Shown: positions 11,020 to 25,687, numbered from the stretch's first letter. The stretch is 64,000 nt of DNA from an uncultured Thermoplasmatales archaeon (GCA_964391965.1 CAYMOC010000002.1:16915-80914), one strand, 5' to 3'. The notes: a model not told the origin generated them from the letters alone. Program-made: numbers and translations.

Positions 11020-12011
11020 AATATGCAGTTATTGGCTTAGGTGCCGTTGGGAGTATCATTGCTGGTTTACTTTCAAAAAACAATGAAAATGTTATCTTAA
11101 TTGGTAAAAAAACACAAATCGAGCAGATTAAAAAAAATGGATTAAAAATCTCAACAAATCAATCTGAGACAATAATAGAAAATCTTAACTTATCATCAAA
11201 GTTTGCTTCTGTAGAGAAAGTTGATATACTTTTTGTATGTGTAAAATCACAGGATACTAAAAAATTATTTTTAGAACTAAAAGAGTTTCTAAAAGAAGAA
11301 ACGGTTATTGTTTCATTACAAAATGGTGTTAGAAACGCTGAAATAATAAATAAAATTGTTAAAAATAAGGTACTTTCATCAGTAGTTTTATTCAATGCCG
11401 TATACAAAAAACCAGGAAACGTCGACTTGTCAATCAGGGGAGGAATTCTATTAGAAGATGATAAAAAATATTCAAAAATAATAGATGAATTATTCAAAAA
11501 CACGGATGTAAAAATAACTCTTGTCGAAAACATAAAAAGTTACCAATGGAGTAAACTTATCCTAAATCTGCAAATAGCTGTAACTGCACTTACTGGTCAA
11601 ACAATAAAAGAATCAATTATAAATAAGGATTCGAGGAAAATTTTAGCTGAAACAATGTCTGAAGGAGTAAAAATTGTTGACAAATCAGGTGTTAAACTTG
11701 AAAAACTGCCGGGTCTTGATCCAAAAAAAATGATTAAACGGCTTAATATGCTTAATTCAATATTTTTAAGAATAGGAAGTAAATTTCTTGGTGTTTCAAA
11801 GAATGCTAGAAATTCAATGTGGCAGAGTCTTGCAAGAAATAAAAAAACTGAAATAGATTTTATAAATGGTGAAATTGTAAAACTTGCAGAGAGAAATAAT
11901 TTAGAAGCACCTATAAATGAAAAACTTGTAAAATATGTAAAACAGGCCGAAAAAAAAGACAGTGTTGGTAACATCAAACCCAAGAAGTTGAGAAAAATAT
12001 TAGATTTTTAA
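11016..12011 (+). CDS. ketopantoate reductase (ApbA/PanE) family NAD(P)H oxidoreductase
   Basis: The N-terminus MKYAVIGLGAVGSIIAGLL is a Rossmann fold. Its start overlaps the UbiA stop (ATGA), giving translational coupling. Confidence 0.6.
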   Translation: MKYAVIGLGAVGSIIAGLLSKNNENVILIGKKTQIEQIKKNGLKISTNQSETIIENLNLSSKFASVEKVDILFVCVKSQDTKKLFLELKEFLKEETVIVSLQNGVRNAEIINKIVKNKVLSSVVLFNAVYKKPGNVDLSIRGGILLEDDKKYSKIIDELFKNTDVKITLVENIKSYQWSKLILNLQIAVTALTGQTIKESIINKDSRKILAETMSEGVKIVDKSGVKLEKLPGLDPKKMIKRLNMLNSIFLRIGSKFLGVSKNARNSMWQSLARNKKTEIDFINGEIVKLAERNNLEAPINEKLVKYVKQAEKKDSVGNIKPKKLRKILDF

Positions 12012-12064: not shown

Positions 12065-12913
12065 ATGAAAAGAAATTCAAATAAACAAATTCAAGAGCAA
12101 TGGGCAAAATATTGGGATAACGTCTGGGTTCAGAAAGACGACTCAAAAAAACTTAAATCAATTAATAAAAAAGAGCAAATTTATTTTTCTTTAGCAGGCA
12201 TTATCAACTCATATATTAAAAATTATATTAAAAATGATAAAGAATACAGAATAATTGAGATTGGTTGCGGTGGTTCTTCAATATTTCCAATTTTGATGAA
12301 GAGCTTTAAAAATCTAAAAATCGCAGGTATTGATAGGTCTCTTCTTGGATGTAATTTCGTATTTGAAGGAAATGAATATAGAAATGGATCTGTTGATGTC
12401 ATCTGTGGTGATGCATTACAAATTCCAATAAAAAATAATTCTTTCGATATCTCTTATAGTATTGGCCTTGTTGAACATTTTGAAAATCAATATGAAATTA
12501 TCAAAAGCCATGTAGATCTTTTAAAAAAGGAGGGGTTAGTTGTAATAGTGATACCAAATCTAACTGGTTTTCAAAAAAAACTATTAAGATCTGAGCTTTT
12601 TAAATCCAAAACAGCATTGAACAATCAAAATTGGATTAATGGAATGAAAATAACGACAACTAATGATTTAAAAAAAATATTAAAAAAGCTAGATTGTAAA
12701 AAAATCGAAATCATACCCGCAGGAGGGTTACATCCGCTTTTAATGTTGGAATCATATTATTCAGAGAAATACTCTGAAGCAAATAAATTTTCAGATACTA
12801 TTTATAAAATCTTTTTATCAGGACTGTTTATAATAATTAATATTCCCTTTATATTTAGATTAAACATGATGAATTTATCACCTTTCATTGTAGCCACTGC
12901 AATAAAAAAATAA
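12065..12913 (+). CDS. class I SAM-dependent methyltransferase
   Basis: Motif I is IIEIGCGGSS. An acidic loop and a motif II-like region (VICGDALQIP) follow. Confidence 0.6.
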   Translation: MKRNSNKQIQEQWAKYWDNVWVQKDDSKKLKSINKKEQIYFSLAGIINSYIKNYIKNDKEYRIIEIGCGGSSIFPILMKSFKNLKIAGIDRSLLGCNFVFEGNEYRNGSVDVICGDALQIPIKNNSFDISYSIGLVEHFENQYEIIKSHVDLLKKEGLVVIVIPNLTGFQKKLLRSELFKSKTALNNQNWINGMKITTTNDLKKILKKLDCKKIEIIPAGGLHPLLMLESYYSEKYSEANKFSDTIYKIFLSGLFIIINIPFIFRLNMMNLSPFIVATAIKK

Positions 12914-12940: not shown

Positions 12941-13594
12941 ATGAGTAGTAAAATAGTTATAAATTTTTTTTCTTTTATCAAAAAAATTTTGTTTTCTGAA
13001 TTTCCTGATAAATTCAAACCCGGGAGTTTAAAAAATGTTGTAGATCTGATGTTCAGAGTTTTTGAAAAAACAGCTCATAATTTTGATTTTATAACAAATG
13101 CATATTTGAATGCATATGAAGTTATGATTGAAAAAGAGTTAAAACTAACAGAGGTATCAAAGGATGATTCTGTTTTAATCATTGGATGTGGTTCTCTGCC
13201 TTCTACATCTATTGTTATTGCTGAAAAAACTAATGCTAAAAATGTTAGTATGGATATAGATAAATCTGCAGTTGAAGCAGCTAGAAAAATATTAAAGAAA
13301 ATGAATCTTTTAGATAAAGTAAAAGTAAGACTTGTTGAAGATATAAATTATCCAATAGATGATTTTGATTTAATCTTTATTTTATATGGTGTTAAGAAAC
13401 AGGAAAAAATTTTTAGACATATTTTTGAAAATGCAAAATCAGATGTTAAAGTTATAATTAGATCATATTCAGATGATTTTAAGAATGTTTTTGATTTTAA
13501 AAATTTTAAAGTTTTAGATCATTTTATAATTGTTAAAAAAGTTAGATCTGATGTTTTTGGACCTGTTTTTTCTTTTCTTTTAGAAAAAAAATAA
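12941..13594 (+). CDS. SAM-binding Rossmann-fold enzyme, nicotianamine-synthase-like glycine loop (or methyltransferase)
   Basis: VLIIGCGSLPSTSIVIAEK resembles the NAS motif (F/V)(I/V)GSGPLPLTSI(V/L). The protein is 217 aa. Confidence 0.4.
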   Translation: MSSKIVINFFSFIKKILFSEFPDKFKPGSLKNVVDLMFRVFEKTAHNFDFITNAYLNAYEVMIEKELKLTEVSKDDSVLIIGCGSLPSTSIVIAEKTNAKNVSMDIDKSAVEAARKILKKMNLLDKVKVRLVEDINYPIDDFDLIFILYGVKKQEKIFRHIFENAKSDVKVIIRSYSDDFKNVFDFKNFKVLDHFIIVKKVRSDVFGPVFSFLLEKK

Positions 13595-13601: not shown

Positions 13602-14978
13602 TTATTTTTTTATTTTAGAAACTATTACTTTTATTTGATCTGAACGTGCATCTTTTTGTATATGATCTGTTTCTGTTACTCTGACTTTAACACTTTTTCC
13701 TATTTTTTGTTGAAATCTTTTTTGAAGTTCATTAATTAATTCTTTAACACTTACTCCTTGGTTTCTTTGTTTTTCATCTATTACGATTAATATTTCAACG
13801 TCATCAAGATCATGTTGCACTATTTGGAATTGTTTTATTTTATAAGAGTTAAAAAATTCCATTGTTTTTGCAGGGATACCAGTTACACTCAATGGAGAAA
13901 GTGTTTTTCCATTTGGAAGATAAATTAATTCTGATGTTCGGCCTTCGATGTGTTTTATTAATTTTGAAGTTATTCCACAACTTGTTTTTTTATCAATAGG
14001 TACAACTATGTCATCTATACCTGTATATCTTATTATTGGGGTTCCTTTCCCGTATAGTTTTGTTATTACTGTATGACCTGGTTTGTTTAAAGGAACGGGT
14101 TTATTGTTATCATCAAGTATTTCCATGTAGACATAGTCTGAGTGGATGTGGAAAAAGTTGCCTTCAACACATTCGAAACCTATTGGTCCTCCTTCTGTTG
14201 TTCCATAAATGTCAAAAACGCGTGTGTTGAATGCCTTTTCTACATATTTTTTTGTGTACTCATCAAGTGTTGAACCTCCAGAGCCTATGAATTTTGGTTG
14301 AATGTTTTTTCCTTGCCCATTGTGTTTTAAATATGCTAGTTGTCTAAGCATGTTAGGATCAGTAGCTAAAAACTCTGGTTGGAAAACATTTAGTTCTTTG
14401 ATTATTTTTTCTGGTTTTTCACCTAAATGCAGATATTTTACATGATCCATTGATATGAATTTTTTTGCGAAAGGCATTAGACTTTCTGAGAAAAAAGCGT
14501 TTTCTGCACTACCTGGTTCTACATCTATTATCAGACATGATTTTGTAGTTCTCCAGTTTCCACCATATGCTTTTAAAACTCTTATAAAAGCAAGCAGGCT
14601 TTTGATTGCAGCAAAACGGTCGATATAAATAAAAACTGGTTTACCAGTAGAGCCACTAGTAGATATTGTAAAACCGTCTTTTGTTTTAAAATTATAAGGT
14701 TTAATGTTTACAGGATAGTTATTTCTTAAATCATCTTTTGTGATGAAAGGAAGTTTACCGATATCATTTATTCCATGTATATCATCGGGATGAACTCCAG
14801 CTTTTTTGTATTTATCATGATACATTGGCACAGTGTATGCATATTTCACAATTTTTCTAAGTTGTTTATCCTGATATCGTCTAAGTTTTTCTTTGTCAAA
14901 ACTCCATGGTCTATTGATATCAGAAAGATAATTTTTGCCTAGATTATATAGAAATTTAGGATCGATAAAGAAACTCAT
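13602..14978 (-). CDS. PaaK/coenzyme F390 synthetase-like adenylate-forming enzyme
   Basis: It has the AMP-binding P-loop TSGSTGKP and an N-terminal region typical of COG1541. Confidence 0.65.
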   Translation of the reverse strand: MSFFIDPKFLYNLGKNYLSDINRPWSFDKEKLRRYQDKQLRKIVKYAYTVPMYHDKYKKAGVHPDDIHGINDIGKLPFITKDDLRNNYPVNIKPYNFKTKDGFTISTSGSTGKPVFIYIDRFAAIKSLLAFIRVLKAYGGNWRTTKSCLIIDVEPGSAENAFFSESLMPFAKKFISMDHVKYLHLGEKPEKIIKELNVFQPEFLATDPNMLRQLAYLKHNGQGKNIQPKFIGSGGSTLDEYTKKYVEKAFNTRVFDIYGTTEGGPIGFECVEGNFFHIHSDYVYMEILDDNNKPVPLNKPGHTVITKLYGKGTPIIRYTGIDDIVVPIDKKTSCGITSKLIKHIEGRTSELIYLPNGKTLSPLSVTGIPAKTMEFFNSYKIKQFQIVQHDLDDVEILIVIDEKQRNQGVSVKELINELQKRFQQKIGKSVKVRVTETDHIQKDARSDQIKVIVSKIKK

Positions 14979-15098
14979 TTTTCAAATATTTCCTCTTTTT
15001 TTGCTCTACATGTATTATTAACACAAGATATTTAACTTTTAATAATAGAACTATATTATTTGATTTAAAGGGAGGCGTCTTAACTGAGCGTGTTTTCT

Positions 15099-16412
15099 AT
15101 GATTCGTGGATTTTTAGCTTTAAAAATTCATGAAAGAAACTCTAGAGAAAAAATACTTAAAATTCAAGAAAAAAAATTCCGTAAAATTTTAAAATTTGCC
15201 TATAACAATTCTAAATTTTATCATAATCTGTATAAATCAAAAGGTATTTCAGAGGAGGAATTGGATAATATACCTGTTGAAAAAATACCTGTGGTAGATA
15301 AAGAAACATTAATGGAAAATTTTGATGATGTGGTAACAGTAGATGATGTTTCCAAAAAAGAGGTTCTGAGTTTTTTAAATGAAAGTAAACATCCTAATGA
15401 TCTTTTAAAAAACAAATATCATGTTATTCATTCATCAGGTTCCTCTGGTAAATTAGGTTTGTTTCTTTACAGCAAAAAAGAATGGGACAGCATTTACCCA
15501 TATATTACAAAAGCTTATGATTTCAATTTCAGAAAAAACCGTTCTGTTTTTATAGGTGCAACAGGAGGACATTTCGCAGGAGCCAGCTTTAGTAGTTGGG
15601 GTGGAAAAGGAATACCTGGTTTATTTAATGAACCACTTATACTTAATGTAAATGAACCAATAGATCAGATAATAAAAAAACTAAATAATTTTAAACCAAC
15701 AATTTTAGGTGGTTATTTTAATGCTTTAAAAATTCTTGCTCAGAAAAAAGAAAATGGTTTACTCAAAATTAATCCTAAAATATTAGTAAACTGTGGGGAA
15801 GGACTAAACCTTAAAGACAAAGAATTTATTGAGAATGTTTTCGATGCACCTATGTCAAATTTGTATAGTTTTGCTGAATGTATTGTTTTAGGATTTGGAA
15901 AGGATGAATATGAAGGCATATACCTTTTTGATGATTTAGCAAAAATTGAATTTAAAAAAGATTATATAATTGTTACAAACCTGTATAATAAAACAGAGCC
16001 GATAATTAGATACAGAATTGATGACTATATTTCATTAAAAAAAGATAAAAAAAACAAGTATCCCTTTACACTAGTAAATGAAATAATTGGAAGAGCAGAG
16101 TTTATAATTTGGTTTAAAAATGAAGAAGGAAACAAAGATTTTATTCATCCTTTGATTTTTACAGATTTTTTTGTTAAAGGATTAGATAAACATCAAATAA
16201 TTATAACCGGTGAATCTTCATTTATTTTTAAAGCAGTTATTAAATCTGATGAAAAAAAGAGAGTTTTAAAGGAAATAGATAAAAAATTAGAAAAAATTTT
16301 ATTAGATAAAAAATTTTCAAATGTCAAATACCAAATCAAAGAAGTTGATGAAATTCCTGTTAACCCAAAAACAGGTAAATATAAACTAGTAATAGATAAG
16401 AAAAAAAATTGA
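15099..16412 (+). CDS. PaaK-like adenylate-forming enzyme paralogue with degenerate P-loop
   Basis: Its architecture matches 13602-14978, but the P-loop is HSSGSSGKLG. The ATG at 15099 is preferred over the GTG at 15090. Confidence 0.5.
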   Translation: MIRGFLALKIHERNSREKILKIQEKKFRKILKFAYNNSKFYHNLYKSKGISEEELDNIPVEKIPVVDKETLMENFDDVVTVDDVSKKEVLSFLNESKHPNDLLKNKYHVIHSSGSSGKLGLFLYSKKEWDSIYPYITKAYDFNFRKNRSVFIGATGGHFAGASFSSWGGKGIPGLFNEPLILNVNEPIDQIIKKLNNFKPTILGGYFNALKILAQKKENGLLKINPKILVNCGEGLNLKDKEFIENVFDAPMSNLYSFAECIVLGFGKDEYEGIYLFDDLAKIEFKKDYIIVTNLYNKTEPIIRYRIDDYISLKKDKKNKYPFTLVNEIIGRAEFIIWFKNEEGNKDFIHPLIFTDFFVKGLDKHQIIITGESSFIFKAVIKSDEKKRVLKEIDKKLEKILLDKKFSNVKYQIKEVDEIPVNPKTGKYKLVIDKKKN

Positions 16413-16416
16413 TGTT

Positions 16417-17814
16417 TTAATCATCTCTTATAAAAAACATTCTAAGTCCTGCTTTAATAAAACGGAAATCCCATTTTTTAAAAGCTCTAAAAATTTGTCG
16501 AAAAAGATATTTAGGATTAAAATAAAATTTTTTATGAGCATATAAACAGTAATCATTTAGCTCCTCTTTTGACAGTTTACTTAATCCTCTGTTTGAGTCT
16601 GCATCCACAATATATTCATCTGATCTGACTTTGCCATTTTTCACAGCTTCATCCCACATCTCGGAACCGCGGTAATAACCAAGAGTTAAAAAATGTGCGA
16701 TATCCAATGGAATACTTCTAGCAAAACGAATTGTATCCTCAATATCTTCTTTTGTTTCCATTGGTGCACCAAAAATAAAACTACCAGAGGTTATGAAACC
16801 CATTTTGTGGCTAAGATGTACTGCATTACGAATTTGATCAGGAGTTGTTCTTTTATTATAAAAATCTAAAACTTTCTGATTAGCTGATTCGATACCAAAA
16901 GAAATAAATTTTACACCGGCATCCTTCATTTTTTTATAAATTACTGGATCTGCTGAATCTACTCTAGCAGCCATAACCCAGAAATTTAGATTAAAATTAT
17001 TCTCGATTACTTTATCCATTATTTTTCCGACACGTTTCTTATTTGCAAGAAAATTATTATCAACAATTATAACAGTTTCAAAACCATCTTTTACAATCTT
17101 ACGAAGCTCTTTGATGACATTTTCAACAGATCTCTCACGATAACATGGATCTATTGCATTATAACCACAGAATCTGCAATTATATGGACAACCCCGTGTT
17201 GTGATTATAGAAGTTGTTTTACCATCGGTCATTTTTTGACCTAAGATATAACCATAGTCATATTTTTCAACAAGATGGCGAGCTGGAAAAACGATCTTAT
17301 CTAAATCTTTTATAACATCTAAATCCGCGGTTTTTTTAATCAAACCTTTTTTATCACAATAACAAATCCCTTTAATCGCTGATAGGTCTTTTTTACCGTT
17401 CAAGGCATCAACAATATCAAGTATGTTTTGCTCCCCTTCCCATTTAACACAAATATCTGAATCAAAATCCATAAGAGCATCTTCTGGATCTAACGCACAA
17501 TGAGGGCCACCAATTAAAAAAGGTTTATTTTTTTCAATGTTTCTAATAAATTTTGCTAATTCTTTTGATTGCTCAAAAGAACTTGTACAAATAGTTAGAC
17601 CTATAACATCTGACCATGAAATCAATGATTTAAGTTTTTCACGTTCAACATTTTCAGCAGTTAAATCTAATACTTCAATACTGTGACCGTCTTTTTCTAG
17701 AATTGCTGAAAGATATAATATTCCCAGAGGTGGAGAATAAGGATTAACCGGTAAGGTTTTTTTATCTGCGATTCTAAATCCTCTACCTGGAGGGAAAATA
17801 AACAAAAAATTCAT
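16417..17814 (-). CDS. B12-binding radical SAM protein
   Basis: It has an N-terminal cobalamin-binding-like domain and the motif RGCPYNCRFCG (CxxxCxxC). Confidence 0.7.
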   Translation of the reverse strand: MNFLFIFPPGRGFRIADKKTLPVNPYSPPLGILYLSAILEKDGHSIEVLDLTAENVEREKLKSLISWSDVIGLTICTSSFEQSKELAKFIRNIEKNKPFLIGGPHCALDPEDALMDFDSDICVKWEGEQNILDIVDALNGKKDLSAIKGICYCDKKGLIKKTADLDVIKDLDKIVFPARHLVEKYDYGYILGQKMTDGKTTSIITTRGCPYNCRFCGYNAIDPCYRERSVENVIKELRKIVKDGFETVIIVDNNFLANKKRVGKIMDKVIENNFNLNFWVMAARVDSADPVIYKKMKDAGVKFISFGIESANQKVLDFYNKRTTPDQIRNAVHLSHKMGFITSGSFIFGAPMETKEDIEDTIRFARSIPLDIAHFLTLGYYRGSEMWDEAVKNGKVRSDEYIVDADSNRGLSKLSKEELNDYCLYAHKKFYFNPKYLFRQIFRAFKKWDFRFIKAGLRMFFIRDD

Positions 17815-17828: not shown

Positions 17829-19157
17829 TTAAATATTAAAATCATTTTTGTAATATCTTCTAAATGTAACATTAGTCCCCATAGGAAGTAATGCTCCCAT
17901 TCTCCTAACTGTTGTTAAAATCCTTGTGTTTCTTTTTATGATATTCTTCCACGAGTAAAATTCTTTAGCGACTTTTTTACTCCCGTTTAATAATTCTTCA
18001 ACGGTCATATTTTTGGGTTCAAAAACAACATCAACCTGATTATATTTACTCCAATCTTTAGTAAAAATACGTCCTTCTCTATCAAGCCTATCAAATAAAG
18101 GCGTACCTGGATACGGCGTTAAAATATTTATTTCAAGAACATCTATTTCAAGTTCATTTATTTTTTCAAGAGTTGCATCAAAAACATCAGGTGTGTCTTC
18201 ATCAAAACCAAATATTATCCCCCCTTGAATTGACATCCCGTAATCATGAACACGATCTATCATTTTACTAAAATCTTCAACCTTATTATGTGTTTTTTTT
18301 ATACCATTAAGAGCAGCCTGACTAACTGATTCAAAACCTACAAACCATTCAACACAACCAGATTCTCTAGCCAGCTGTAAAAATTCATCATCAGCTTTTA
18401 ACAAAACATTAGTTGTACCATTAGACACCCAACTTTTATTTATCTTATTTTTAATCATTTCCTTGAAAAGTTTTTTAGCATATTTTGGATTCGCAGTTAA
18501 ATGAGGATCATGAATTGTAAAGAGTCGGTTAGGCATTTCTTTCATTTCATTTATTACATTTTGTATAGGTCTTTGTTTAATACCATGCTCGCAGAAACTA
18601 GCAATTGCACAAAACTCACACCTGTTGGGACAACCACGTGTTGTCTGAACAGCACCCATAATAGGATTATGTCTGATAAGATCTCTTCTTATAGGAGGTA
18701 TGTCCTCGGGTTTATAGTTTGTATCTTTTTCATAAATTTTTTTAAGTTTTCCTTTCTCAAAATCAGCAAGAAGCTTAGGCCAGTTCGATTCAGCCATACC
18801 TAAAATAATACTATCAGCATGTTTCAAAGCCTCTTCAGGCACAGCAGTTGGATGATAACCTCCAAGAACTACTTTTTTACCCCTTTTTCTAAACTCATCA
18901 GCTATTTCATAGACACGTGGAGCTGTCATAGTATAACAAGTAATACCTATAAGATCTGCATCAGTATCAAAATCAAGGGAATCATAGTTCTCATTAACGA
19001 TTTCTACATCATATTTTTTAGGAGTGATTGCTGCAACATGGGGCAAAGTAATTATTGGATAACCAAAAAGAATAGAAGCCCATGAGCTTTTATCATTTAC
19101 AGTAGTTGCACCATGTTCAATCCTTGGAAACACAAGAAGTACTTTAATAAAGTTCAA
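17829..19157 (-). CDS. B12-binding radical SAM protein (DUF4070-like C-terminus)
   Basis: The radical SAM motif is RGCPNRCEFCA. It is a clear paralogue of 22762-24045. Confidence 0.7.
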   Translation of the reverse strand: MNFIKVLLVFPRIEHGATTVNDKSSWASILFGYPIITLPHVAAITPKKYDVEIVNENYDSLDFDTDADLIGITCYTMTAPRVYEIADEFRKRGKKVVLGGYHPTAVPEEALKHADSIILGMAESNWPKLLADFEKGKLKKIYEKDTNYKPEDIPPIRRDLIRHNPIMGAVQTTRGCPNRCEFCAIASFCEHGIKQRPIQNVINEMKEMPNRLFTIHDPHLTANPKYAKKLFKEMIKNKINKSWVSNGTTNVLLKADDEFLQLARESGCVEWFVGFESVSQAALNGIKKTHNKVEDFSKMIDRVHDYGMSIQGGIIFGFDEDTPDVFDATLEKINELEIDVLEINILTPYPGTPLFDRLDREGRIFTKDWSKYNQVDVVFEPKNMTVEELLNGSKKVAKEFYSWKNIIKRNTRILTTVRRMGALLPMGTNVTFRRYYKNDFNI

Positions 19158-19270: not shown

Positions 19271-20587
19271 TCAAAAAAGTTTATCAAAATCCGAGATGAA
19301 ATAATCGGATTTATTTATTTCAACAGACTTAAAATCTATTTTAATTTTTGGATAGAGTTGAAATTTTGTTTTAATTTTTTTATTTAGACCATGTGAATTT
19401 AAAACTAAATTTAAACCAAAACCTTCAGGTGGTTTTAAAAAATCTAAGCTTATAGAACTATGATTTGTGTTAAATAATTGTCTTTGAGGTTCAAATTTAC
19501 AAAACCCTTCTAAATCTATTCTTCTATCGCCATTTGAATAAAAACCTTTTACAGTTCCAGGTTGTTCATAAACTATATATGCATTCTTATTGTCAGATAA
19601 TTTAAATAGAAAACCATATGGGTCAGTTTTTTTCTTAAAATTTATTTTGAATTTTTCTTTATCATCCTGAAAGATTAAACTTATTTCAGTGGGGTAATAA
19701 ATATCATGATCTTCTGAATATTCAATTTTTTTATATTCAAAACATCCATTAAAAAATTCTTTATATTTGCATCCATCCTTAGATAAAATAATTGTGCCTA
19801 TAACAGGGCCTTTTAATATCCATCCTAAAATATTACCATAAAAAAGAGTCCAACCATTATCAAAAACTGCCCATGCCCAATCATAACCAAGAGGGTTATT
19901 GTCTTTACTAAAAGCTAAGGAATTTGGGATTCTTGGTTTTTTGCATTGCAACCATTTACCCATTAGTTTAGCATAAGTTGAAAGACTTTTTTTAATATTT
20001 CTTGAATATGTAAACCAGTTTGTATATGAAAAATCTCCCCATACATGTTCATAATATCCAGAGCCGTTTACTGAAAAATTATTTTGATTTATGTTTAACA
20101 AACCTGAGATTTTACATTTTGGGATAAAACCATACCTGTAAAAACCTAAACCCATTGGAAGCCAGCCGTTAGTTGTTCCTTGGGATACCCAATGTGGTAG
20201 TGCTTCTGATTTATATGTTAAATTGGTTTGTATATTGTTTTTTTTATCATTCAAAAAAATTTTATAATCTGGGAATAAACCTTCGATGTATGAATCTTTG
20301 TAATTTATTTTTTGAGTTTTGTGATCTGCATATATTTTCAGTTTTTTTCGCTGATTTTCAGAATAATAACTATAATGTTTATTTTCATCTAAGTCGAAAA
20401 GAGTTATAAAAAAATTTGAGCCGTATTCTTTTGATTTTTTGAACCATTCGCCAAAGGAGGCTTTTAAATTCCATTTTTTTTTATTATCATTTTGTTTTAA
20501 AAAAGCTTCGAAACACCACCACTCTATTGCACTTTTTTCATGTTCTTTTTCATCAGAACAGCTCCAAGGATTTTTATTATCAACCAT
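19271..20587 (-). CDS. CrtC/AttH-like (carotenoid 1,2-hydratase/lipocalin-like) protein, tentative
   Basis: HEKSAIEWWCFEAFL resembles the H..EWWY.TGhL N-terminal motif of the CrtC/AttH family. The protein is Trp/Tyr-rich and beta-rich. The internal ATG at 20587 avoids overlap with the divergent gene. Confidence 0.35.
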   Translation of the reverse strand: MVDNKNPWSCSDEKEHEKSAIEWWCFEAFLKQNDNKKKWNLKASFGEWFKKSKEYGSNFFITLFDLDENKHYSYYSENQRKKLKIYADHKTQKINYKDSYIEGLFPDYKIFLNDKKNNIQTNLTYKSEALPHWVSQGTTNGWLPMGLGFYRYGFIPKCKISGLLNINQNNFSVNGSGYYEHVWGDFSYTNWFTYSRNIKKSLSTYAKLMGKWLQCKKPRIPNSLAFSKDNNPLGYDWAWAVFDNGWTLFYGNILGWILKGPVIGTIILSKDGCKYKEFFNGCFEYKKIEYSEDHDIYYPTEISLIFQDDKEKFKINFKKKTDPYGFLFKLSDNKNAYIVYEQPGTVKGFYSNGDRRIDLEGFCKFEPQRQLFNTNHSSISLDFLKPPEGFGLNLVLNSHGLNKKIKTKFQLYPKIKIDFKSVEINKSDYFISDFDKLF

Positions 20588-20682
20588 AGACAAAAATTGT
20601 ATTAAATAGATTATATAAATATGTTTATCATACATATAAAAAAGTTTTTTTATAGGATAAAACATATAAAAAATGGTTTTCT

Positions 20683-21699
20683 TTGCAGATGAAAAAAACA
20701 AAAGTTGACATAATAGGCGGGGGAATATCAGGATTAGCCGCAGCCATAGCAATAAAAAAACTTAACAAAAAAATAGATGTAAATATCTATGAAAAACACA
20801 AAAAAATAGGATACAACCCAGAAGGAAGAAGATGTGGAGAAGCCCATTCAATAGAAGGAAAATGGAAAAAATGGAAACCAAACAAAAAAAGCATATTCAA
20901 TGAAATATACAAAGTCGAAACAATAGTCGGGAAAAAAACTTATACACTAAAAAGAAAAAAAGGAACATCCTGCATATTAAACAGACAAGAATTCATATCA
21001 AATTTAGGAAAAAAAGCAGAAAAACTTGGAGCATACATACAAACAGATAACAAAATAAAAACAATAAAAGAATTAGATGCAAAATACATAATCGATGCAT
21101 CAGGATGCCCTAGCTTTGTAAAAAAAGAATTAAAAATTAACCATGGAATAACAGGAAAAACATATCAACAAACAATAGAAAACTCAAATTTTTTCATAAA
21201 AGACACCGTTAAAATATTTATAACAGAAAAAACAGGCTATTATTGGATTTTTCCAAGAAATCCCGATAAAAAAGAAATTAATCTAGGTGTAGGCATTGTC
21301 GGAAAAAAACAAGCTAACTTAAAAAAAATATTAAATGAATTTAAAGAAAAATACAAAGTCACAGGAGAAATTAATTACAAAACAGGAGGGTTGATACCGG
21401 TCGGGCTGCAGAGGCCGCTTAAACATGAAAATATACTATTTGTTGGGGATACAGGAGTCGGCACTTTTCCGTATACTGGAGAGGGAATATACCGTGCTCT
21501 ATTAAGTGGAGATATCGCAGCGGATTGCATCGTCAAAAAACAAATAAGAAGATATCCTCATGAAATAAATCAAAATTTTATCAAATGGGATCTTATTGGA
21601 AAAAATGTAATAAGGATAAGCTCAGTATTAGAAAGTATAAGCCCAAAAGCTGTTGTTTCAATGCATCAAAAATATCTCAATTTTTTTATTAGCAATTGA
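20683..21699 (+). CDS. geranylgeranyl reductase-family FAD-dependent oxidoreductase (short, 338 aa)
   Basis: It has the FAD-binding motif DIIGGGISGLAAA and the GGR-family motif FVGDTGVGTFPYTGEGIYRALLSG. Confidence 0.55.
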   Translation: MQMKKTKVDIIGGGISGLAAAIAIKKLNKKIDVNIYEKHKKIGYNPEGRRCGEAHSIEGKWKKWKPNKKSIFNEIYKVETIVGKKTYTLKRKKGTSCILNRQEFISNLGKKAEKLGAYIQTDNKIKTIKELDAKYIIDASGCPSFVKKELKINHGITGKTYQQTIENSNFFIKDTVKIFITEKTGYYWIFPRNPDKKEINLGVGIVGKKQANLKKILNEFKEKYKVTGEINYKTGGLIPVGLQRPLKHENILFVGDTGVGTFPYTGEGIYRALLSGDIAADCIVKKQIRRYPHEINQNFIKWDLIGKNVIRISSVLESISPKAVVSMHQKYLNFFISN

Positions 21700-21735
21700 A
21701 TAGAAAATAATATTATTACTATTTATTTTTAAATT

Positions 21736-22716
21736 TTATCTATCAAATTTTTTGGGATACATGGTGTAACCAAATTCGTCAAAATAAAAAATCATTTTTT
21801 TATAAATGTATTCTCTAAGAAACTTTACTTCTCGGGCAAGATTAAGATTTCTAGGCTCTACATAATCCTTAAAATCTACGTCAGTTGTTACATCTAAAAA
21901 ATCAAGTACTTCATCCATTGTTTTATCTGTTTTATTACAAAGTGACTCATATGTAATAGAAACATAATCATTATCATTTAACTTATGTATATTATTTAGA
22001 TAAAAACTTGTTTCTTTTGAAGCCCTATTTATAATATCAAAAACACCAGTAGGAAAAAAACCTGAATAATATAAACGATTTAATGCTAAAAGAATAGGAT
22101 TTTCATATGTTTTATTATATTTTTTTGAAAACATTGCAGTATACAAATTCTTTTTCTCTAATAATTTCTGCCATGCCCTCATTGTAGAACTGATAACTGC
22201 TAGTGGATTTCTGTTGATAAAAATAAATTTGGCATTTGGAAAATGTTTTTTTATAAATAAAAAATTTGGATAATCATATGGGTTTTTAAGAAGAACAGGA
22301 TAATTATTTTTAGATATAAACATAATTTTTTGACATAATTGTTTTAAAAGAGCTGTGTTTTCCAAAGAAGTTTTCTCAGACATGTTTTTTTTAGTGTAAA
22401 TGTAAACATATTCATGAGCGTAATCAGCTGTTACTTTAATTCGATCAATTTTTCTATTAGTGATTCCTTTTGATTTAAAAACTTCATTAAGTTCTTCCTT
22501 TGTATCTTGTTCAAGGTTATTTATATGATTATAAATTAACTCATCATATTTTAAAATATGATACGCAGTTACAATATTGAGTTTTTTTGTATCACCTAGC
22601 ATTTTGTAAAGAATGCTTGTACCAGATCTATGCAAACCCATGATAAATATAGGATAAAAATCCATATTTTCTATTAGGTTAAGATGTGTTTTGTCAATAT
22701 TTTTTTCTTGTAACAT
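21736..22716 (-). CDS. PAPS-dependent sulfotransferase
   Basis: The 5'-PSB motif is GLHRSGTSIL and the 3'-PB motif is RNPLAVISS. Confidence 0.65.
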   Translation of the reverse strand: MLQEKNIDKTHLNLIENMDFYPIFIMGLHRSGTSILYKMLGDTKKLNIVTAYHILKYDELIYNHINNLEQDTKEELNEVFKSKGITNRKIDRIKVTADYAHEYVYIYTKKNMSEKTSLENTALLKQLCQKIMFISKNNYPVLLKNPYDYPNFLFIKKHFPNAKFIFINRNPLAVISSTMRAWQKLLEKKNLYTAMFSKKYNKTYENPILLALNRLYYSGFFPTGVFDIINRASKETSFYLNNIHKLNDNDYVSITYESLCNKTDKTMDEVLDFLDVTTDVDFKDYVEPRNLNLAREVKFLREYIYKKMIFYFDEFGYTMYPKKFDR

Positions 22717-22761: not shown

Positions 22762-24045
22762 TCAGATGTTTAGTTTTTCATTTTTGTAAAAATATCTAGT
22801 ACTTAAACCTGAAAGAAATGATGTTAAAACATCTATAACATTAAAACCATTGTTTTTTATACTTCTTTTTAAACAGTTTTTAACCGAGTAAAACTCTCCA
22901 GCTATCCTTCTGATACCCTCATATAATTCATCAGCCGTCATTTCTTTTGGTATGAAATTTACTTTACCTTCTTCATATCTTGACCAATCATAACTTGTTA
23001 TCCTTCCTTCTTTTTCCAATCTATCAAATAGTGGGGTACCTGGATAAGGTGTTAATATACTAAATGTTGCTGAATCAAGACCCCAATCATACATTGCTTT
23101 AAGTGTTTCATCAAAACAATCTGGTGTGTCATAATCTAACCCAAATACAAAAAAACCTGTAACTTTCATATCATGATTTTTGATTTTTTGGATAGCTTTT
23201 TCATAATCTTCAACCTTATTTGTACCCTTACCAGCAGAATCGATGCTTTCTTGGGATATAGATTCTATACCAAGATACCATCTTACAACGCCTGCTTTTT
23301 TAGCTAATTCTAAAAATTCATCATCTTTTGCTACAATATTTATATTGCCAAATGCATAAAATTTTTTATCAAGTTTCGCCATTTCCCTAAAAAGTTTTTT
23401 TGTATATTTTGGATTGATCGTGAGTGATGCATCTGCAAAAAATATTGATTTAGATTTTATTTTTTTCATTTCGTCAATTACAGATTCTACAGGACGGGCT
23501 CTAAAAATTCTTCCCTCCACCCTATTCATAGCGCAGAATTCACAACCAGTTGGACAACCTCGAGATACTTGGATTCCCTCCATAAAAGTATAATTACCGA
23601 CATCATGTCTTGCCTGTGGTATTTCTTCAGGTTTTACTAATCTTTCAGGTGTATATATTTTTTTAAGTTCTCCTTTTTCTAAATCCTTTAAAAGTTTAGG
23701 CCAAGTAAGTTCTCCTTCTCCAATAACTATTGCATCAGCATGCTCTTTTACTTCATCAGGCATAAGAGTTGCATGATAACCACCAATTACTACAGGCATA
23801 TTTTTTTCTCTAAATTTTTTTGCGACTTCATAAGCTCTAAGAGAATTATAAGTTAGAGACGTGATACCGACCAAATCATATTTTTTATTAAAATCTATAG
23901 TTTCATATCTTTCATCAATGATTTCAACATCATGTCCGTCCGGTGTAATACCAGCGATTTGTTGTAAAGTCAAACTAGGATAAGTAATCTTATTTAACAT
24001 ACTTCTTTTTGTATTTGGATGAGGAGAAACTAATAAAATTTTCAT
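22762..24045 (-). CDS. B12-binding radical SAM protein
   Basis: The radical SAM motif is RGCPTGCEFCA. It is a paralogue of 17829-19157. Confidence 0.7.
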   Translation of the reverse strand: MKILLVSPHPNTKRSMLNKITYPSLTLQQIAGITPDGHDVEIIDERYETIDFNKKYDLVGITSLTYNSLRAYEVAKKFREKNMPVVIGGYHATLMPDEVKEHADAIVIGEGELTWPKLLKDLEKGELKKIYTPERLVKPEEIPQARHDVGNYTFMEGIQVSRGCPTGCEFCAMNRVEGRIFRARPVESVIDEMKKIKSKSIFFADASLTINPKYTKKLFREMAKLDKKFYAFGNINIVAKDDEFLELAKKAGVVRWYLGIESISQESIDSAGKGTNKVEDYEKAIQKIKNHDMKVTGFFVFGLDYDTPDCFDETLKAMYDWGLDSATFSILTPYPGTPLFDRLEKEGRITSYDWSRYEEGKVNFIPKEMTADELYEGIRRIAGEFYSVKNCLKRSIKNNGFNVIDVLTSFLSGLSTRYFYKNEKLNI

Positions 24046-24289
24046 CTTTTAACACATCTAACAAATTTTTTTTATAAATTTTTTATATACAATTCTTATA
24101 TTTGTAGTTTTACCAACAAAACCCTGTTAATAAACTAAATTTTAGCGTAAATACACTCTATACTGGTTTAGTTTACTAAATAGGTTTTATTTAAAATTTT
24201 TTGATAGATCTATCCAAAAGAAAAAATTGATATCAACAGTAGTTTTTAATATTTCATGTTTTATTTTCCAATACTGGCGAATTGATATT

Positions 24290-25687
24290 ATGAATGAATT
24301 CTTTAATCCAAAAAATACATTTTCGTTTTTAAAAACATTTTTTTTCGATCCAAAAAGATTAAAGAATTTTTCCAAAGAAAAAATGGAAAGATATAGAAAT
24401 AAAGCATTTAGAAAAACAATAGAGTATGCTTATACAGTTCCTTTATACCATAAAAAATATAGAAAAGCAGGAGTACACCCTAAAGATATAAAAGGATTTA
24501 AAGATATAGAAAAACTACCTTTCGTTACAAAGAAAGACCTTAGAGAGGCATCCTTAGAAGAGATTATTTCAAAAGGTGCAAAAAAAGAGAATAAATATGT
24601 TGTTTGCACCAGTGGTTCTACTGGAAAACCTGTAAATTTTTTTACTGATTTTCAAACATTATCAAAAAGTATTGGGATTTACTTGAGAGAATTAGAGATT
24701 TTTGATTTACATTGGAGAAAGTCAAAAGTAGCACATATTGGAAATTTTAGTAAAGACAAAGCAGATTCTGCTTTCGAAGAAGGTTTTGTATCCAAAACAC
24801 GTGTTTTTTACAACCATAGTAACTCTCTTTCAATTAACAATTTTGAACCGATAGATAAAATTATGAAAAAATTAGACAGTTTTAAACCCGATCTGATTTT
24901 ATCCTACCCGGTGACTTTTAAAAATTTAGCTTTTTTAAAAAATAAAGGATATGGTAAAAACGTTAACCCCCAGGTTTTAGCTGTTGGCGGTTATGTTTTA
25001 GATGAATATACCAAAAAATATGTAGAGGATGCTTTCAACTGTAAAATGTTAAATGTTTACTCATCAGCAGAATCAGGTGCAGATATTGCATTTGAATGTT
25101 TTGATGATACTTGGCATGTAAACCATGATTTTTTCCATGTTGAATCTATAGATGAACAAAGAACTCCTGTTGATGATAAAACTTCAGGTCATGTTGTTTT
25201 GACAAGGATGTTTGGACAAGGAACGCCTATAGTTAGATACACAGGTATGGATGATTGGGTTACAATAGAAGAAGATTATAACTGCAGTTGTGGTTTAAAT
25301 ACCCCTATTTTAAAAGGTGGTATTAAAGGTAGGATGAGCACAAGTGTTATTTTACCAGATGGAAGAGTTTATCCTTCTGCATCATTTGCTTTTATATCTG
25401 TTATTTTAAATAAGTTTAATACAAAAAAAGTGAAACAATTTCAGATAATTCAGAATAAAATTGATGATATTGAGATTTTACTTGTAATAGATGAAGTCCT
25501 TAGAGATAAACCTCCCGCGGTTGATAAAATTTTTAATAAAATAAAAGAAAAATATCAAGAGATCTGCGGAGAAAATGTTAATATCAAAGTAAGAGAGGTA
25601 GATGAAATTAAATCTGAAAGAGGGAAACCTTCACCTTTGGTGATTTCAAAGATTGATACTGAAGAGGCATATAAAAAAATATTATAA
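24290..25687 (+). CDS. PaaK/coenzyme F390 synthetase-like adenylate-forming enzyme
   Basis: The P-loop is TSGSTGKPVNFF. It is a close paralogue of 13602-14978. The start is at the internal ATG at 24290. Confidence 0.65.
   Translation: MNEFFNPKNTFSFLKTFFFDPKRLKNFSKEKMERYRNKAFRKTIEYAYTVPLYHKKYRKAGVHPKDIKGFKDIEKLPFVTKKDLREASLEEIISKGAKKENKYVVCTSGSTGKPVNFFTDFQTLSKSIGIYLRELEIFDLHWRKSKVAHIGNFSKDKADSAFEEGFVSKTRVFYNHSNSLSINNFEPIDKIMKKLDSFKPDLILSYPVTFKNLAFLKNKGYGKNVNPQVLAVGGYVLDEYTKKYVEDAFNCKMLNVYSSAESGADIAFECFDDTWHVNHDFFHVESIDEQRTPVDDKTSGHVVLTRMFGQGTPIVRYTGMDDWVTIEEDYNCSCGLNTPILKGGIKGRMSTSVILPDGRVYPSASFAFISVILNKFNTKKVKQFQIIQNKIDDIEILLVIDEVLRDKPPAVDKIFNKIKEKYQEICGENVNIKVREVDEIKSERGKPSPLVISKIDTEEAYKKIL

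Follow-up and report, generated by a model that had tools for sequence, protein, structure and literature searches.

A divergent gene pair for an AttH/CrtC-fold protein and a compact GGR-family flavoprotein in an uncultured Thermoplasmatales archaeon: putative tailoring enzymes of isoprenoid lipids

On a stretch of 64,000 nucleotides from an uncultured Thermoplasmatales archaeon (hereafter the window), a gene for a CrtC/AttH-like protein and a gene for a short GGR-like flavoprotein stand head to head. This arrangement raises the question of whether a hydratase acting on isoprenoid double bonds and a GGR-type reductase form there a coherent pair of tailoring enzymes, as a sequence-only reading of this DNA had proposed. 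Hydroxylated and unsaturated tetraether lipids serve as environmental and palaeotemperature markers; little is known of which organisms make them in anoxic sediments, since the archaea concerned have not been cultured. Hgs, the first enzyme known to form OH-GDGTs by hydration, was reported late in 2025 (bioRxiv 10.1101/2025.10.20.683597). Combining profile searches, structure models and comparison of gene neighborhoods, we find that the pair is best read as a hydratase and a reductase tailoring isoprenoid ether lipids, a variant on a known theme.

The gene pair and its two protein families

Both claimed reading frames were found (Table 1), and the claimed head-to-head spacing of about 95 bp is 95 bp or 101 bp depending on whether the plus-strand gene starts at the TTG in 20683 or at the ATG in 20689. 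On the minus strand the longest mechanical ORF (19271-20752) opens with a TTG and encodes 493 aa. Every one of the 42 aligned homologues starts at the MVDNK position, which supports the ATG at 20587 as the start; the 464-aa product P0001 of the protein collection (sources NCBI and Logan) is probably over-extended. The product from the ATG at 20689 is 100% identical to the database entry P0121. Since each gene has hundreds of conserved homologues in the protein collection, neither is a chance ORF. The stretch between them is about 90% identical to that of a relative (locus L008), and its geometry points to a divergent promoter. The minus strand carries an exact archaeal TATA consensus (TTTATATA) at 20612-20619, 24 nt 5' of the ATG at 20587, but this provides weak promoter support because this motif is not enriched across the window (33 found versus 35.4 expected).

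The assignment of the minus-strand protein to the CrtC/AttH-like family holds at the level of family and fold. The match to the CrtC profile PF07143, on which the pairing argument had been made to depend, is borderline for the window sequence itself (E 0.0049; 18 bits against a gathering score of 22.5, with positions 1-167 of the 168 in the profile covered) and clear for its family: 25 of the 43 homologues reach E<0.01 (best 7.9e-7), several relatives exceed the gathering score and a broad superfamily profile finds AttH (PDB 2ICH) at E 2.4e-30. The other suggested profile, the lipocalin-like PF17186 (Lipocalin_9), has no sequence match in the window protein and matches a single one of the 43 homologues at E<0.01; distant archaeal relatives match it above GA. 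The fold is predicted to be two consecutive lipocalin-like beta-barrels, the structure model aligning over 285-287 residues to two-barrel structures.

The motif behind the original CrtC-like call, HEKSAIEWWCFEAFL, includes E22-W23-W24, all invariant in the 43 homologues; across the broad superfamily alignment E22 does not vary and W23/W24 reach at least 90% conservation, and the three residues align to IEWWY of AttH 2ICH. The superfamily signatures D-x-G-x-H...EWW(Y), G-x-G-(W/Y)-x-(D/E)-H-x-W-G and G-W-D-W are all present, the residues being, in alignment to the AttH sequence, D12/E13/H16, E22-W23-W24, G175-x-G177-Y-Y-E-H181-V-W183-G184 and G234-Y-D236-W237. In the superfamily alignment H181-x-W183 aligns with the conserved H-x-W-G of bacterial AttH-like sequences, and D236 falls in the WDW motif common to AttH. 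Alanine mutants of CrtC at H239 and W241 are inactive (PMC4717167), and H181/W183 may be the counterparts of these residues. Y235/D236 or Y250 are candidate counterparts of CrtC Y266/D268 (R. gelatinosus numbering; no direct alignment to CrtC). An amphipathic helix at residues 195-215 is an insertion specific to the family. Every characterised hydratase of the AttH/CrtC fold makes a tertiary alcohol from an isoprenoid C=C (bioRxiv 10.1101/2025.10.20.683597; PMC6013536). The fold also houses Diels-Alderases, epoxide-rearranging enzymes and a phosphate lyase, and hydration is not guaranteed.

The GGR-like call of the plus-strand protein was right, as the family motifs are kept and the best structural matches are GGRs. 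The profile PF22578 (GGR_cat) scores 36.3 bits (cutoff 27), and TIGR02032 is covered at positions 5-297 of 297 with 124 bits, under its cutoff of 158.8. The best Foldseek matches are TaGGR (3OZ2; E 1.6e-21, TMq 0.81) and then SaGGR, the best PDB matches being GGRs with TMq values of 0.75-0.81. The protein carries IGGGISG (GxGxxG), RRC49GEA, with the Cys of the (P)CG motif, versus KPCGDA in SaGGR, GYYWIFP...NLGVG (YxWxFP-x8-GxG) versus GYWWYFP...NVGLG, and VGDTG versus IGDSG; the FAD, Cys, YxWxFP-x7-8-GxG and GD motifs are invariant in 39 homologues. From the SaGGR/TaGGR literature, we take the FAD GxGxxG, the flavin-proximal Cys, YxWxFP..GxG and GD to be the hallmark motifs of GGRs. There are 474 homologues, of about 336 aa among those listed, and by sequence the protein appears to belong to a conserved GGR subfamily of this length.

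As claimed, the protein is shorter than typical GGRs: with 336 aa it has 61-117 aa less than the enzymes of Thermoplasma (397) and Sulfolobus (453), the two other GGR paralogues of the window having 398 and 420. To the question of which domain is absent, the answer appears to be no whole domain but C-terminal helices and loops only. The shortness comes from the loss of about 38 C-terminal residues and several internal loops; full-length GGRs run on for about 38-115 further residues at the C-terminus, where the short protein keeps helices 266-282, 286-317 and 319-335. Compared with TaGGR and SaGGR (3ATQ), to which it is 19-22% identical, it lacks the last C-terminal helices and presents a PEGRR insertion before the Cys. 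It is the third, divergent paralogue in the window, and the presence there of a housekeeping Thermoplasmatales-type GGR (56095-57291) suggests a specialised role for the short one. Versus the closest relative, L008, the gene body has 66-77% nucleotide identity inside flanks of 90-95%, a pattern that looks like a recombination patch and would make the gene an exchangeable unit.

A conserved island and its variable composition

The pair lies within an island of roughly 18 kb (about 7.9-25.7 kb in window positions), which is conserved in uncultured sediment Thermoplasmatota; the AttH-like family is confined to these organisms.

Table 1. Genes and other features of the island, in window positions
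Feature	Position	Strand	Basis or remark
542-aa radical SAM protein, homologue of the ring-synthase-type (grs) gene product beside Ted	7855..9483	-	Sequence identity
UbiA-family prenyltransferase, DGGGP-synthase-like	10027..11019	+	PF01040, E 2e-35
ApbA/PanE-family NAD(P)H oxidoreductase, overlaps UbiA stop	11016..12011	+	Profile matches
Class I SAM methyltransferase	12065..12913	+	Profile match
Small SAM-dependent transferase, NAS/CntL-like methyltransferase fold	12941..13594	+	Profile matches
PaaK/F390-synthetase-like adenylate-forming enzyme 1	13602..14978	-	Profile matches
PaaK/F390-synthetase-related adenylate-forming enzyme 2	15090..16412	+	TIGR02304, 118.6 bits
B12-binding radical SAM enzyme A, HpnJ/BchE-like	16417..17814	-	14 bp downstream of B
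B12-binding radical SAM enzyme B (DUF4070)	17829..19157	-	Pfam B12-binding, Radical_SAM, DUF4070
AttH/CrtC-fold protein, 438 aa, subfamily AttH-1, putative isoprenoid C=C hydratase	19271..20587	-	Profile, fold, motifs
AT-rich divergent intergenic region (95-101 bp)	20588..20688	none	TATA consensus inside
Compact GGR-family flavoprotein, 336 aa (alternative start TTG 20683)	20689..21699	+	PF22578, TIGR02032, Foldseek, motifs
Sulfotransferase, convergent with GGR gene	21736..22716	-	PF13469, E 1e-22
B12-binding radical SAM enzyme C, paralogue of B (43% identical)	22762..24045	-	Profile matches
PaaK-like adenylate-forming enzyme 3	24227..25687	+	39% identical to enzyme 1

The first radical SAM protein of the island is 50% identical over 524 aa to the product of L070:4337-6052, a GDGT ring synthase gene co-localised with ted (bioRxiv 10.1101/2025.10.20.683597), and has relatives 78% identical in L073 and 79% in L051. 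The best PDB match of the UbiA protein is, over nearly its full length, the DGGGP synthase of M. jannaschii (6M31; E 3e-20), and a GGGP synthase (PcrB) is encoded elsewhere in the window. The B12-radical-SAM enzymes A, B and C are respectively 28% (E 6e-38), 26% (E 2e-33) and 27% (E 2e-37) identical to Ted. Enzyme B, encoded immediately downstream of the AttH-like gene, shows 65-80% identity to its counterparts in relatives, where its gene often directly adjoins the AttH gene. With about 440 aa versus 614 aa, the three enzymes are not Ted orthologues and could be methylases.

Neighborhoods were counted with HMMs within 10 kb of 68 AttH-like loci; the counts are lower bounds, since, for example, a Pfam-annotated sulfotransferase adjoining the AttH gene in L001 was not captured. 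A random gene is expected at this distance in about 1% of loci. A GGR gene is present in 12 of the 68 loci and is adjacent and divergent in 8; the GGR-AttH pair is thus recurrent but optional, and the commoner partners are UbiA (50 loci, directly adjacent in 25), B12-radical-SAM enzymes (49, adjacent in 21) and the small NAS/CntL-like methyltransferase (47, adjacent in 19), with PaaK-like genes in 34. A sulfotransferase was found in 13 loci and lies on the far side of the GGR gene in 8 of the 12 GGR-bearing ones, the sulfotransferase-GGR-AttH triad occurring in L006, L007, L008, L013, L047, L051, L073 and the window. Eight loci have the UbiA-ApbA pair, and in many relatives two different UbiA genes flank the AttH gene. 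A MatE exporter gene stands between the GGR and AttH genes in L006, L007 and L047, with the order GGR-MatE-AttH kept. The divergent adjacency recurs among AttH relatives that are 40-93% identical, including proteins only 40-52% identical to that of the window and members of two AttH subfamilies (L013, L016, L022, L051, L073), and L073 repeats the arrangement with an AttH-2 paralogue. Two of the three sampled short-GGR genes stand alone in unrelated contexts (L071, L072). The idea of a coherent isoprenoid-tailoring pair is therefore supported in part by the recurrent divergent adjacency and weakened by the fact that most AttH-like genes have no GGR gene nearby.

Relation to characterised enzymes and pathways

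The nearest tested functional analogue is the Hgs/Ted system of Bathyarchaeota, in which an AttH-like hydroxy-GDGT synthase and a B12-radical-SAM tetraether desaturase work on tetraether lipids, OH-GDGTs having been obtained in T. kodakarensis (bioRxiv 10.1101/2025.10.20.683597). As in that system, an archaeal AttH-like gene stands in the window beside a B12-binding radical SAM gene and near a grs-type radical SAM gene. The window family is nevertheless not orthologous to Hgs: the AttH-1 family is a separate, CrtC-like branch of the fold that includes Hgs. The BLASTP comparison of the window protein with Hgs gave E 0.18, the homology threshold of the preprint being E <= 1e-80, and hhalign of the family profile A1 against the Hgs family gave a probability of 2%, versus 77% (E 2e-5) for a broad superfamily profile built without the Hgs sequence. 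Hgs has 344 aa and no Pfam match and lacks the HxW and WDW motifs of the window protein; ted overlaps hgs, whereas 113 bp separate the AttH-like gene from the B12-radical-SAM gene of the window, and the window enzymes, about 170 aa shorter than Ted, share only 26-28% identity with it. Descriptions of Hgs mention no UbiA, methyltransferase, PaaK, GGR or sulfotransferase partners. Hgs is also reported to be nearly absent from Thermoplasmatota, a phylum with Ted homologues (bioRxiv 10.1101/2025.10.20.683597).

NE1406, the AttH-like protein of Nitrosomonas europaea (2ICH; COG 'predicted secreted hydrolase'), is only 14-16% identical to the window protein, and profile A1 searched against PDB sequences matched nothing even at E 10, so that 2ICH was not found in that way. 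Compared with NE1406, the window protein is about 100 aa longer through the inserted helix and extra C-terminal strands, lacks a signal peptide and has H-V-W in place of R-E-W; no reaction is known for AttH itself. CrtC (PF07143) and kievitone hydratase (7A0Q/7A0T) differ by context, the window host being archaeal and carrying no carotenoid or flavonoid gene context. In the hydroxyarchaeol route, Has hydrates one double bond of an unsaturated ether-lipid intermediate and GGR saturates the rest (bioRxiv 10.1101/2025.10.20.683597). The logic of this pairing is like that of the window pair, but Has belongs to an unrelated flavoprotein family (the phytoene-desaturase family) and, unlike the window genes, those for Has and GGR have not been described as divergent neighbors.

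Proposed function and its alternatives

We infer that the island tailors isoprenoid ether lipids and that the AttH-like hydratase and the GGR-type reductase act in one pathway, a proposal to which we give an even chance. The AttH-like enzyme would most probably be cofactor-independent, protonating a trisubstituted polyprenyl C=C and adding water to yield a tertiary alcohol; the acidic D236 of the conserved GYDW, aided by H181/W183, would be the catalyst inside an aromatic-lined barrel, and the amphipathic helix probably docks the enzyme on the membrane. The short GGR would use FAD to saturate the remaining double bonds of a chain that is probably the one installed by the neighboring DGGGP-synthase-like UbiA. 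The hydrated double bond, whose terminal position in the sequence-only reading is conjectural, could be a biosynthetic one that is not yet reduced, as in the route of Has and GGR, or one re-introduced by the adjacent B12-radical-SAM enzyme, as with Ted and Hgs. The DGGGPS-like UbiA, the three Ted-like B12-radical-SAM enzymes, the grs-type homologue and the PcrB of the window favor lipid tailoring, and the sub-threshold PF07143 score of the window protein and the minority state of the GGR adjacency speak against it. Several recurrent neighbors, namely the three PaaK-like ligases, the NAS/CntL-like transferase, the second UbiA, the sulfotransferase and, in some relatives, MatE, have no role in known archaeal core-lipid pathways, which hints at a more elaborate or different product.

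Such a product could be a prenylated small molecule other than a membrane lipid, for instance an electron carrier of quinone or phenazine type or a secreted metabolite, an explanation that we consider unlikely but worth keeping in view. A PaaK-like ligase would activate an aromatic or carboxylic head group, UbiA would prenylate it and the B12-radical-SAM enzymes and methyltransferases would methylate it; the AttH-like enzyme would hydrate or cyclise the prenyl side chain (compare kievitone hydratase or PenF/AsqC), the short GGR would saturate it as MenJ does on menaquinone, and the sulfotransferase and MatE would decorate and export the product. The three PaaK/F390-synthetase-like enzymes, a UbiG/UbiE-like methyltransferase match, the NAS/CntL-like transferase, the weak MenJ match of the short GGR and the interposed MatE gene all fit this scheme, as do the two different UbiA genes around many AttH genes, which to our knowledge core lipid synthesis does not need. 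On the other hand, UbiA is closest to DGGGP synthase, its MqnP/UbiA-type matches being far weaker, the likeness of the radical SAM enzymes to grs and Ted suggests tetraether lipids, and the scan of about 55 window ORFs found no recognisable quinone or phenazine ring-building genes. We hold it improbable that the neighbors share no pathway at all, AttH working with UbiA, the B12-radical-SAM enzymes and the methyltransferase, and the short GGR and the sulfotransferase being an independent cassette that saturates, for example, dolichol or another polyprenol and landed beside the AttH gene in one lineage. Archaeal GGR paralogues that saturate dolichol are known, and the low share of AttH loci with a GGR gene, the solitary short-GGR genes in L071 and L072 and the apparent exchangeability of the gene body versus L008 would agree with such a cassette; its weakness is that the divergent adjacency is kept among strongly diverged AttH proteins and with two AttH subfamilies, against a chance expectation of about 1%, and that the gene order survives where MatE is inserted.

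The triad in eight loci offers three chemically consecutive steps, and the AttH-like protein could in that case be a lyase: the sulfotransferase would activate a tertiary isoprenoid alcohol by turning it into a sulfate ester, sulfate would be eliminated to leave an alkene and the short GGR would reduce it, with a net oxygen-independent removal or relocation of a hydroxyl, by analogy with the 25-phosphosteroid lyase (9FZN) acting after 25-hydroxysteroid kinase. We regard this as very improbable. That lyase eliminates phosphate instead of hydrating and needs a kinase partner, whereas the sulfotransferase is the only candidate activating enzyme in the window; in structure the window protein resembles AttH and kievitone hydratase more than it does the lyase, and it keeps the CrtC-type H-x-W motif, a sulfotransferase accompanies few AttH loci (a lower bound), and no PAPS-synthesis genes were seen in the window. 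We know of no documented sulfation of a tertiary alcohol by this sulfotransferase family. Finally, a genuine carotenoid 1,2-hydratase (CrtC) acting on acyclic carotenoids would account for PF07143 being the only Pfam family matched and for the conserved H-x-W motif, if this is equated with H239/W241. This reading is hardly credible and we reject it because no carotenoid genes were found, neither phytoene synthase, phytoene desaturase nor any other, in the approximately 55 window ORFs or in the annotated neighborhoods of relatives; furthermore, the PF07143 match is sub-threshold, the hosts are anaerobic sediment Thermoplasmatota and the conserved partners are UbiA and B12-radical-SAM genes.

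A bolder form of the lipid-tailoring proposal, which we think improbable, is that the island encodes an undescribed pathway of sediment Thermoplasmatota (MBG-D-type) for making or remodelling hydroxylated, C-methylated and possibly sulfated isoprenoid ether lipids, with the AttH-like protein as the missing hydratase and the triad as a three-step module. Without the need for oxygen, the triad would then convert tertiary alcohol, sulfate ester, alkene and alkane into one another on lipid tails, mirroring the logic of kinase and 25-phosphosteroid lyase in anaerobic sterol degradation.

The compact GGR represents a naturally minimised form of an enzyme of biotechnological interest. If the AttH-like family does hydrate lipid tails, the compact set of AttH-like protein, short GGR, sulfotransferase, B12-radical-SAM enzymes and UbiA would be testable in the archaeal hosts used for Ted and Hgs, another large archaeal group would become a candidate source of hydroxylated isoprenoid lipids, and lipid hydration would have evolved at least twice within one fold.

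Family assignment of the two divergent genes

The AttH-like protein presents a single Pfam match, to the N-terminal lipocalin domain of CrtC (PF07143, residues 21-184), and no match in NCBIfam. This match extends over positions 1-167 of the 168 of the profile and PF07143 is found at E<0.01 in 25 of the 43 aligned family members (best 7.9e-7), but the protein itself reaches only 18 bits (E 0.0049), below the gathering score of 22.5. The AlphaFold2 model based on the 43-member alignment (pLDDT 91.4, pTM 0.88) is nearly all beta-strand with one inserted helix, and Foldseek matched it in the PDB to AttH NE1406 (2ICH, E 4e-14), kievitone hydratase (7A0T, 1e-11), Diels-Alderases of the CghA/Fsa2 type (about 1e-7) and 25-phosphosteroid lyase (2e-7). 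With a profile from the broad alignment, AttH (2ICH) was recovered by sequence nearly end to end, at an E value of 2.4e-30. Fold, motifs and transitive sequence homology thus establish the protein as a member of the AttH/CrtC superfamily despite the sub-threshold score of the single sequence, and the CrtC/AttH-like call of the sequence-only reading was essentially right.

None of the 265 homologues (about 430 aa, 40-61% identity) has an annotation other than hypothetical, and their sources are without exception metagenome bins of Thermoplasmatota type; when one genome per species was scanned, 62 loci were obtained, essentially all labelled as Thermoplasmatota, Thermoplasmatales or Thermoplasmata. 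Among 1.84 billion representative proteins, the family profile found just 239 relatives at E<=1e-3. The distant archaeal members whose origin was checked belong to Thermoplasmatota and Helarchaeota; many of them have a hydrophobic segment at the N-terminus, and some score above the thresholds of PF07143 or PF17186. The remotest matches resemble bacterial-type AttH-like proteins by the motif W-x-D-H-Q-W-G ... G-W-D-W, a type judged from motifs. The gene defines an uncharacterised family restricted to Thermoplasmatota, distinct from CrtC and from the newly described hydroxy-GDGT synthase Hgs.

The motif on which the initial call was based, HEKSAIEWWCFEAFL, includes the EWW signature of the superfamily, and E22, W23 and W24 are invariant within the family. 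H181-x-W183 aligns with the H-x-W-G conserved in bacterial AttH-like sequences and would be equivalent to H239/W241 of the Rubrivivax CrtC, where substitution of either residue by alanine abolishes activity (PMC4717167). D236, an invariant Asp inside a G-(W/Y)-D-W motif, would correspond to CrtC Asp268, the single fully conserved Asp and the proposed proton donor; both correspondences are inferred. Y235, W237, W239, N252, E341, K364, E366, R369 and H376 are further conserved residues of the protein. Two features are family-specific: additional C-terminal strands, and a helix inserted between the barrels (residues 195-215), a candidate for membrane docking with the highest amphipathic moment of the whole protein (muH 0.62). 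Up to three AttH-like paralogues occur per locus in relatives, the window carrying AttH-1 alone: AttH-2 (about 35-40% identical) follows a methyltransferase, and AttH-3 (about 20% identical, about 455 aa) lies upstream of a B12-binding radical SAM (B12-rSAM) gene. Extra paralogues lie about 2 kb downstream of the AttH gene in the relative loci L006, L007, L013, L047 and L051, and others are present in L004, L030, L034-L036, L039, L044, L046, L048, L049, L054, L064, L065 and L068.

The second protein was also correctly read as GGR-like. It passes the cutoff of the GGR catalytic domain (PF22578, 36.3 bits for a cutoff of 27) and aligns with the whole length of TIGR02032 (5-297 of 297) at 124 bits, under the cutoff of 158.8. 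The sequence search of the PDB returned only Sulfolobus and Thermoplasma GGR structures, and the best structural matches of its model (pLDDT 90.6) were TaGGR 3OZ2 (E 1.6e-21, TMq 0.81) and SaGGR, with flavin monooxygenases and halogenases ranking behind. GxGxxG, the Cys of the (P)CG motif (RRC49GEA), GYYWIFP-x8-NLGVG and VGDTG are invariant in 39 homologues. The shortness of the protein had raised the question of which GGR domain was missing; alignment with the two full-length GGR paralogues of the window (398 and 420 aa) showed that no discrete domain is absent, the reduction coming from loss of the last helices (about 38 C-terminal residues) and of three internal loops (about 18, 8 and 5 residues); ahead of the Cys, a short PEG(RR) stretch is inserted. 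The compact length is a family property: of the 120 best homologues listed, out of 474, nearly all measure 330-349 aa. The short GGR is therefore a third, specialised paralogue in addition to the housekeeping GGR at 56095-57291; at least three GGR-type genes lie inside these 64 kb.

The closest relative locus, L008 (CAYLLH010000064.1), is colinear with window positions 19354-29686 at 90-95% nucleotide identity (300-nt bins), but the short-GGR gene departs from this: precisely along its body (window positions compared, 20854-21753) the value drops to 66-77%. At the protein level, the short GGR is 69% identical and the flanking proteins 88-97%. Such a pattern, limited to a single gene, suggests a patch produced by recombination or allele replacement.

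Gene starts, gene island and its conservation

In this window of about 30% G+C, the minus-strand ORF, opened by a TTG, extends over 19271-20752 (493 aa), and on the plus strand an ORF is present at 20683-21699, as first read. All 42 aligned homologues of the AttH-like protein begin at the position of ATG 20587 (MVDNKNPW...), giving 438 aa. The recorded product P0001 (464 aa; NCBI and Logan) starts 78 nt upstream (20588-20665) and is probably too long through a mis-called start codon, because its frame would cross the divergent intergenic region and almost reach the GGR start. The recorded short GGR (P0121) has 336 aa from ATG 20689, the alternative TTG 20683 lying two codons upstream. These starts leave an AT-rich gap of 95-101 bp, in agreement with the roughly 95 bp first estimated. 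It contains one exact archaeal TATA consensus, TTTATATA, on the minus strand at 20612-20619, 24 nt upstream of ATG 20587. The head-to-head geometry makes the suggested divergent promoter plausible, but as a candidate only, since the consensus is not enriched across the window (33 observed for 35.4 expected).

Genes of the island and other features of the window
Feature	Position	Strand	Remark
Radical SAM protein	7855-9483	-	542 aa
Conserved ORF	9505-9828		105-107 aa
UbiA prenyltransferase	10027-11019	+	best PDB match M. jannaschii DGGGP synthase, E 3e-20
ApbA-type (ApbA/PanE) reductase	11016-12011	+	overlaps stop of UbiA gene
Methyltransferase	12065-12913	+	
Methyltransferase, NAS/CntL-like	12941-13594	+	
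PaaK/F390-synthetase-like adenylating enzyme	13602-14978	-	
PaaK/F390-synthetase-like adenylating enzyme	15090-16412	+	
B12-binding radical SAM enzyme A	16417-17814	-	
B12-binding radical SAM enzyme B	17829-19157	-	
AttH-like gene	19271-20587	-	
Short GGR gene	20689-21699	+	
Sulfotransferase	21736-22716	-	
B12-binding radical SAM enzyme C	22762-24045	-	
PaaK/F390-synthetase-like adenylating enzyme	24227-25687	+	
UbiX/Dfp-type flavoprotein	31866-32498	-	
GGGP synthase, PcrB family	32437-33198	-	elsewhere in window
Inositol-monophosphatase-family protein	33223-34008	-	
AglB/STT3 oligosaccharyltransferase	40853-45790	-	1645 aa, fused to Ig-like + CarboxypepD_reg repeats
GGR paralogue	49039-50301	-	420 aa; GGR family
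Protein with terminal Loki-CTERM sorting signal	53983-55248	-	421 aa
GGR paralogue	56095-57291	+	398 aa; 344 bits, Thermoplasmatales-type digeranylgeranylglycerophospholipid reductase model

The neighbourhood was studied in 68 non-redundant AttH-like loci, whose six-frame ORFs were searched by HMMs from window proteins; the counts stem from metagenome bins, are lower bounds and are not phylogenetically independent. Within 10 kb, UbiA was found in 50 of the 68 loci (25 directly adjacent, mostly divergent), B12-rSAM in 49 (21 adjacent, mostly on the same strand), the NAS-like methyltransferase in 47 (19 adjacent), PaaK-like genes in 34 (14), the sulfotransferase in 13 (none), GGR in 12 (8, all divergent) and MatE in 4 (3). 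Leaving out the window and L073, a locus that had been found through its GGR, the GGR count becomes 10 of 66 within 10 kb and 6 of 66 adjacent. The order sulfotransferase -> <- GGR (<- MatE) <> AttH recurs as a triad in 8 of the 12 GGR-containing loci.

Other genes recur as well. The UbiA-ApbA pair is present in eight loci (window, L015, L017, L018, L023, L028, L037 and L048), the ApbA/PanE reductase having no obvious role in known lipid pathways; relatives of the 542-aa radical SAM protein (78-79% identical) occur in L073 and L051, there also near UbiA/AttH genes and accompanied by the 105-107-aa ORF. The genes at 31866-34008 place core ether-lipid and head-group functions in the same window as the AttH/GGR pair. 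The window also encodes four peptidases (M32 carboxypeptidase, M18 aminopeptidase, C1 papain-like and a 1221-aa S8 subtilase; 21-1385, 6481-7836, 30219-31814 and 34298-37963), in keeping with the protein-degrading lifestyle ascribed to sediment Thermoplasmatota.

Relation to Ted/Hgs and the proposed reaction

A full-text literature search returned one directly relevant paper, in which Garcia, Chadwick, Nayak and Welander describe a Bathyarchaeon B12-rSAM as the tetraether desaturase Ted, an overlapping gene encoding the AttH-like Hgs, which hydrates the double bonds made by Ted, and an adjoining GDGT ring synthase (grs) gene; in Thermoplasmatota, Ted homologues were reported and essentially no Hgs homologues (bioRxiv 10.1101/2025.10.20.683597). 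Using a primer sequence from the preprint supplement, we recovered the native locus (L070) from a JGI metagenome, with a grs-type radical SAM gene at 4337-6052, ted at 6080-7924 and hgs at 7917-8951. The 542-aa radical SAM protein of the window is 50% identical to the grs-type protein over 524 residues, and the three B12-rSAMs share 26-28% identity with Ted (E 1e-33 to 1e-38) but are about 170 aa shorter. In direct comparison, the AttH-like protein and Hgs presented no detectable similarity; the link to the Hgs family was made only by the broad superfamily profile with Hgs removed (probability 77% in hhalign, E 2e-5, 232 columns). Hgs lacks the HxW and WDW motifs, whereas the window protein has both, like AttH and the bacterial AttH-like proteins. 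Together, these comparisons indicate an arrangement of the same type, in which B12-rSAM lipid enzymes accompany an enzyme of the AttH fold; in the window this enzyme comes from a different, more CrtC-like branch of the fold, and the arrangement has additional partners. Because Hgs has no Pfam domain match, lacks these motifs and is reached by the broad superfamily profile alone, current domain libraries would miss its family (alignment A5; 253 homologues, best 120 listed).

Fold, motifs and gene order are the basis of the scheme that follows, and from them we infer the rest; our confidence that the AttH-like protein acts in it as a hydratase and the short GGR as a reductase is evenly balanced. 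The AttH-like enzyme would dock on the membrane via helix 195-215 and hold a polyprenyl tail in its aromatic-lined barrel, where D236, assisted by H181 and W183, would protonate a trisubstituted double bond, and water would quench the carbocation to give a tertiary alcohol. Such chemistry was proposed for CrtC, is performed by kievitone hydratase (PMC4717167, PMC6013536) and also by Hgs (bioRxiv 10.1101/2025.10.20.683597). The short GGR would then reduce the remaining double bonds, and the order described for hydroxyarchaeol is likewise hydration by Has, then GGR. Alternatively, a neighbouring B12-rSAM may introduce the double bond into an already saturated lipid, as Ted does.

The main rival is that the island makes a prenylated non-lipid product, which would better explain why PaaK-like, NAS-like and MatE genes and a second UbiA are present; we regard it as unlikely. 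That the two genes are unrelated neighbours seems rather improbable: GGR adjacency is a minority state among AttH-like loci and two of three short-GGR genes sampled on long contigs lie in unrelated contexts, but the adjacency is unlikely to be due to chance, since it persists with AttH proteins 40-52% identical to that of the window and, once (L073), with a different AttH subfamily. A sulfate-ester lyase modelled on 25-phosphosteroid lyase, a weaker structural match than AttH or kievitone hydratase, is very unlikely. A true CrtC function, for all the shared motifs, is scarcely credible; no carotenoid genes were found among the approximately 55 window ORFs scanned.

The family assignments of the two proteins are ordinary; three things are less so, namely the uncharacterised Thermoplasmatota family, distinct from CrtC and Hgs, that the AttH-like gene defines, the presence of this gene within a conserved island of lipid-type enzymes, and the triad in which it recurs together with a sulfotransferase and a minimised GGR. 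The island is directly testable in the Ted/Hgs expression systems, and it bears on which sediment archaea make hydroxylated tetraethers.
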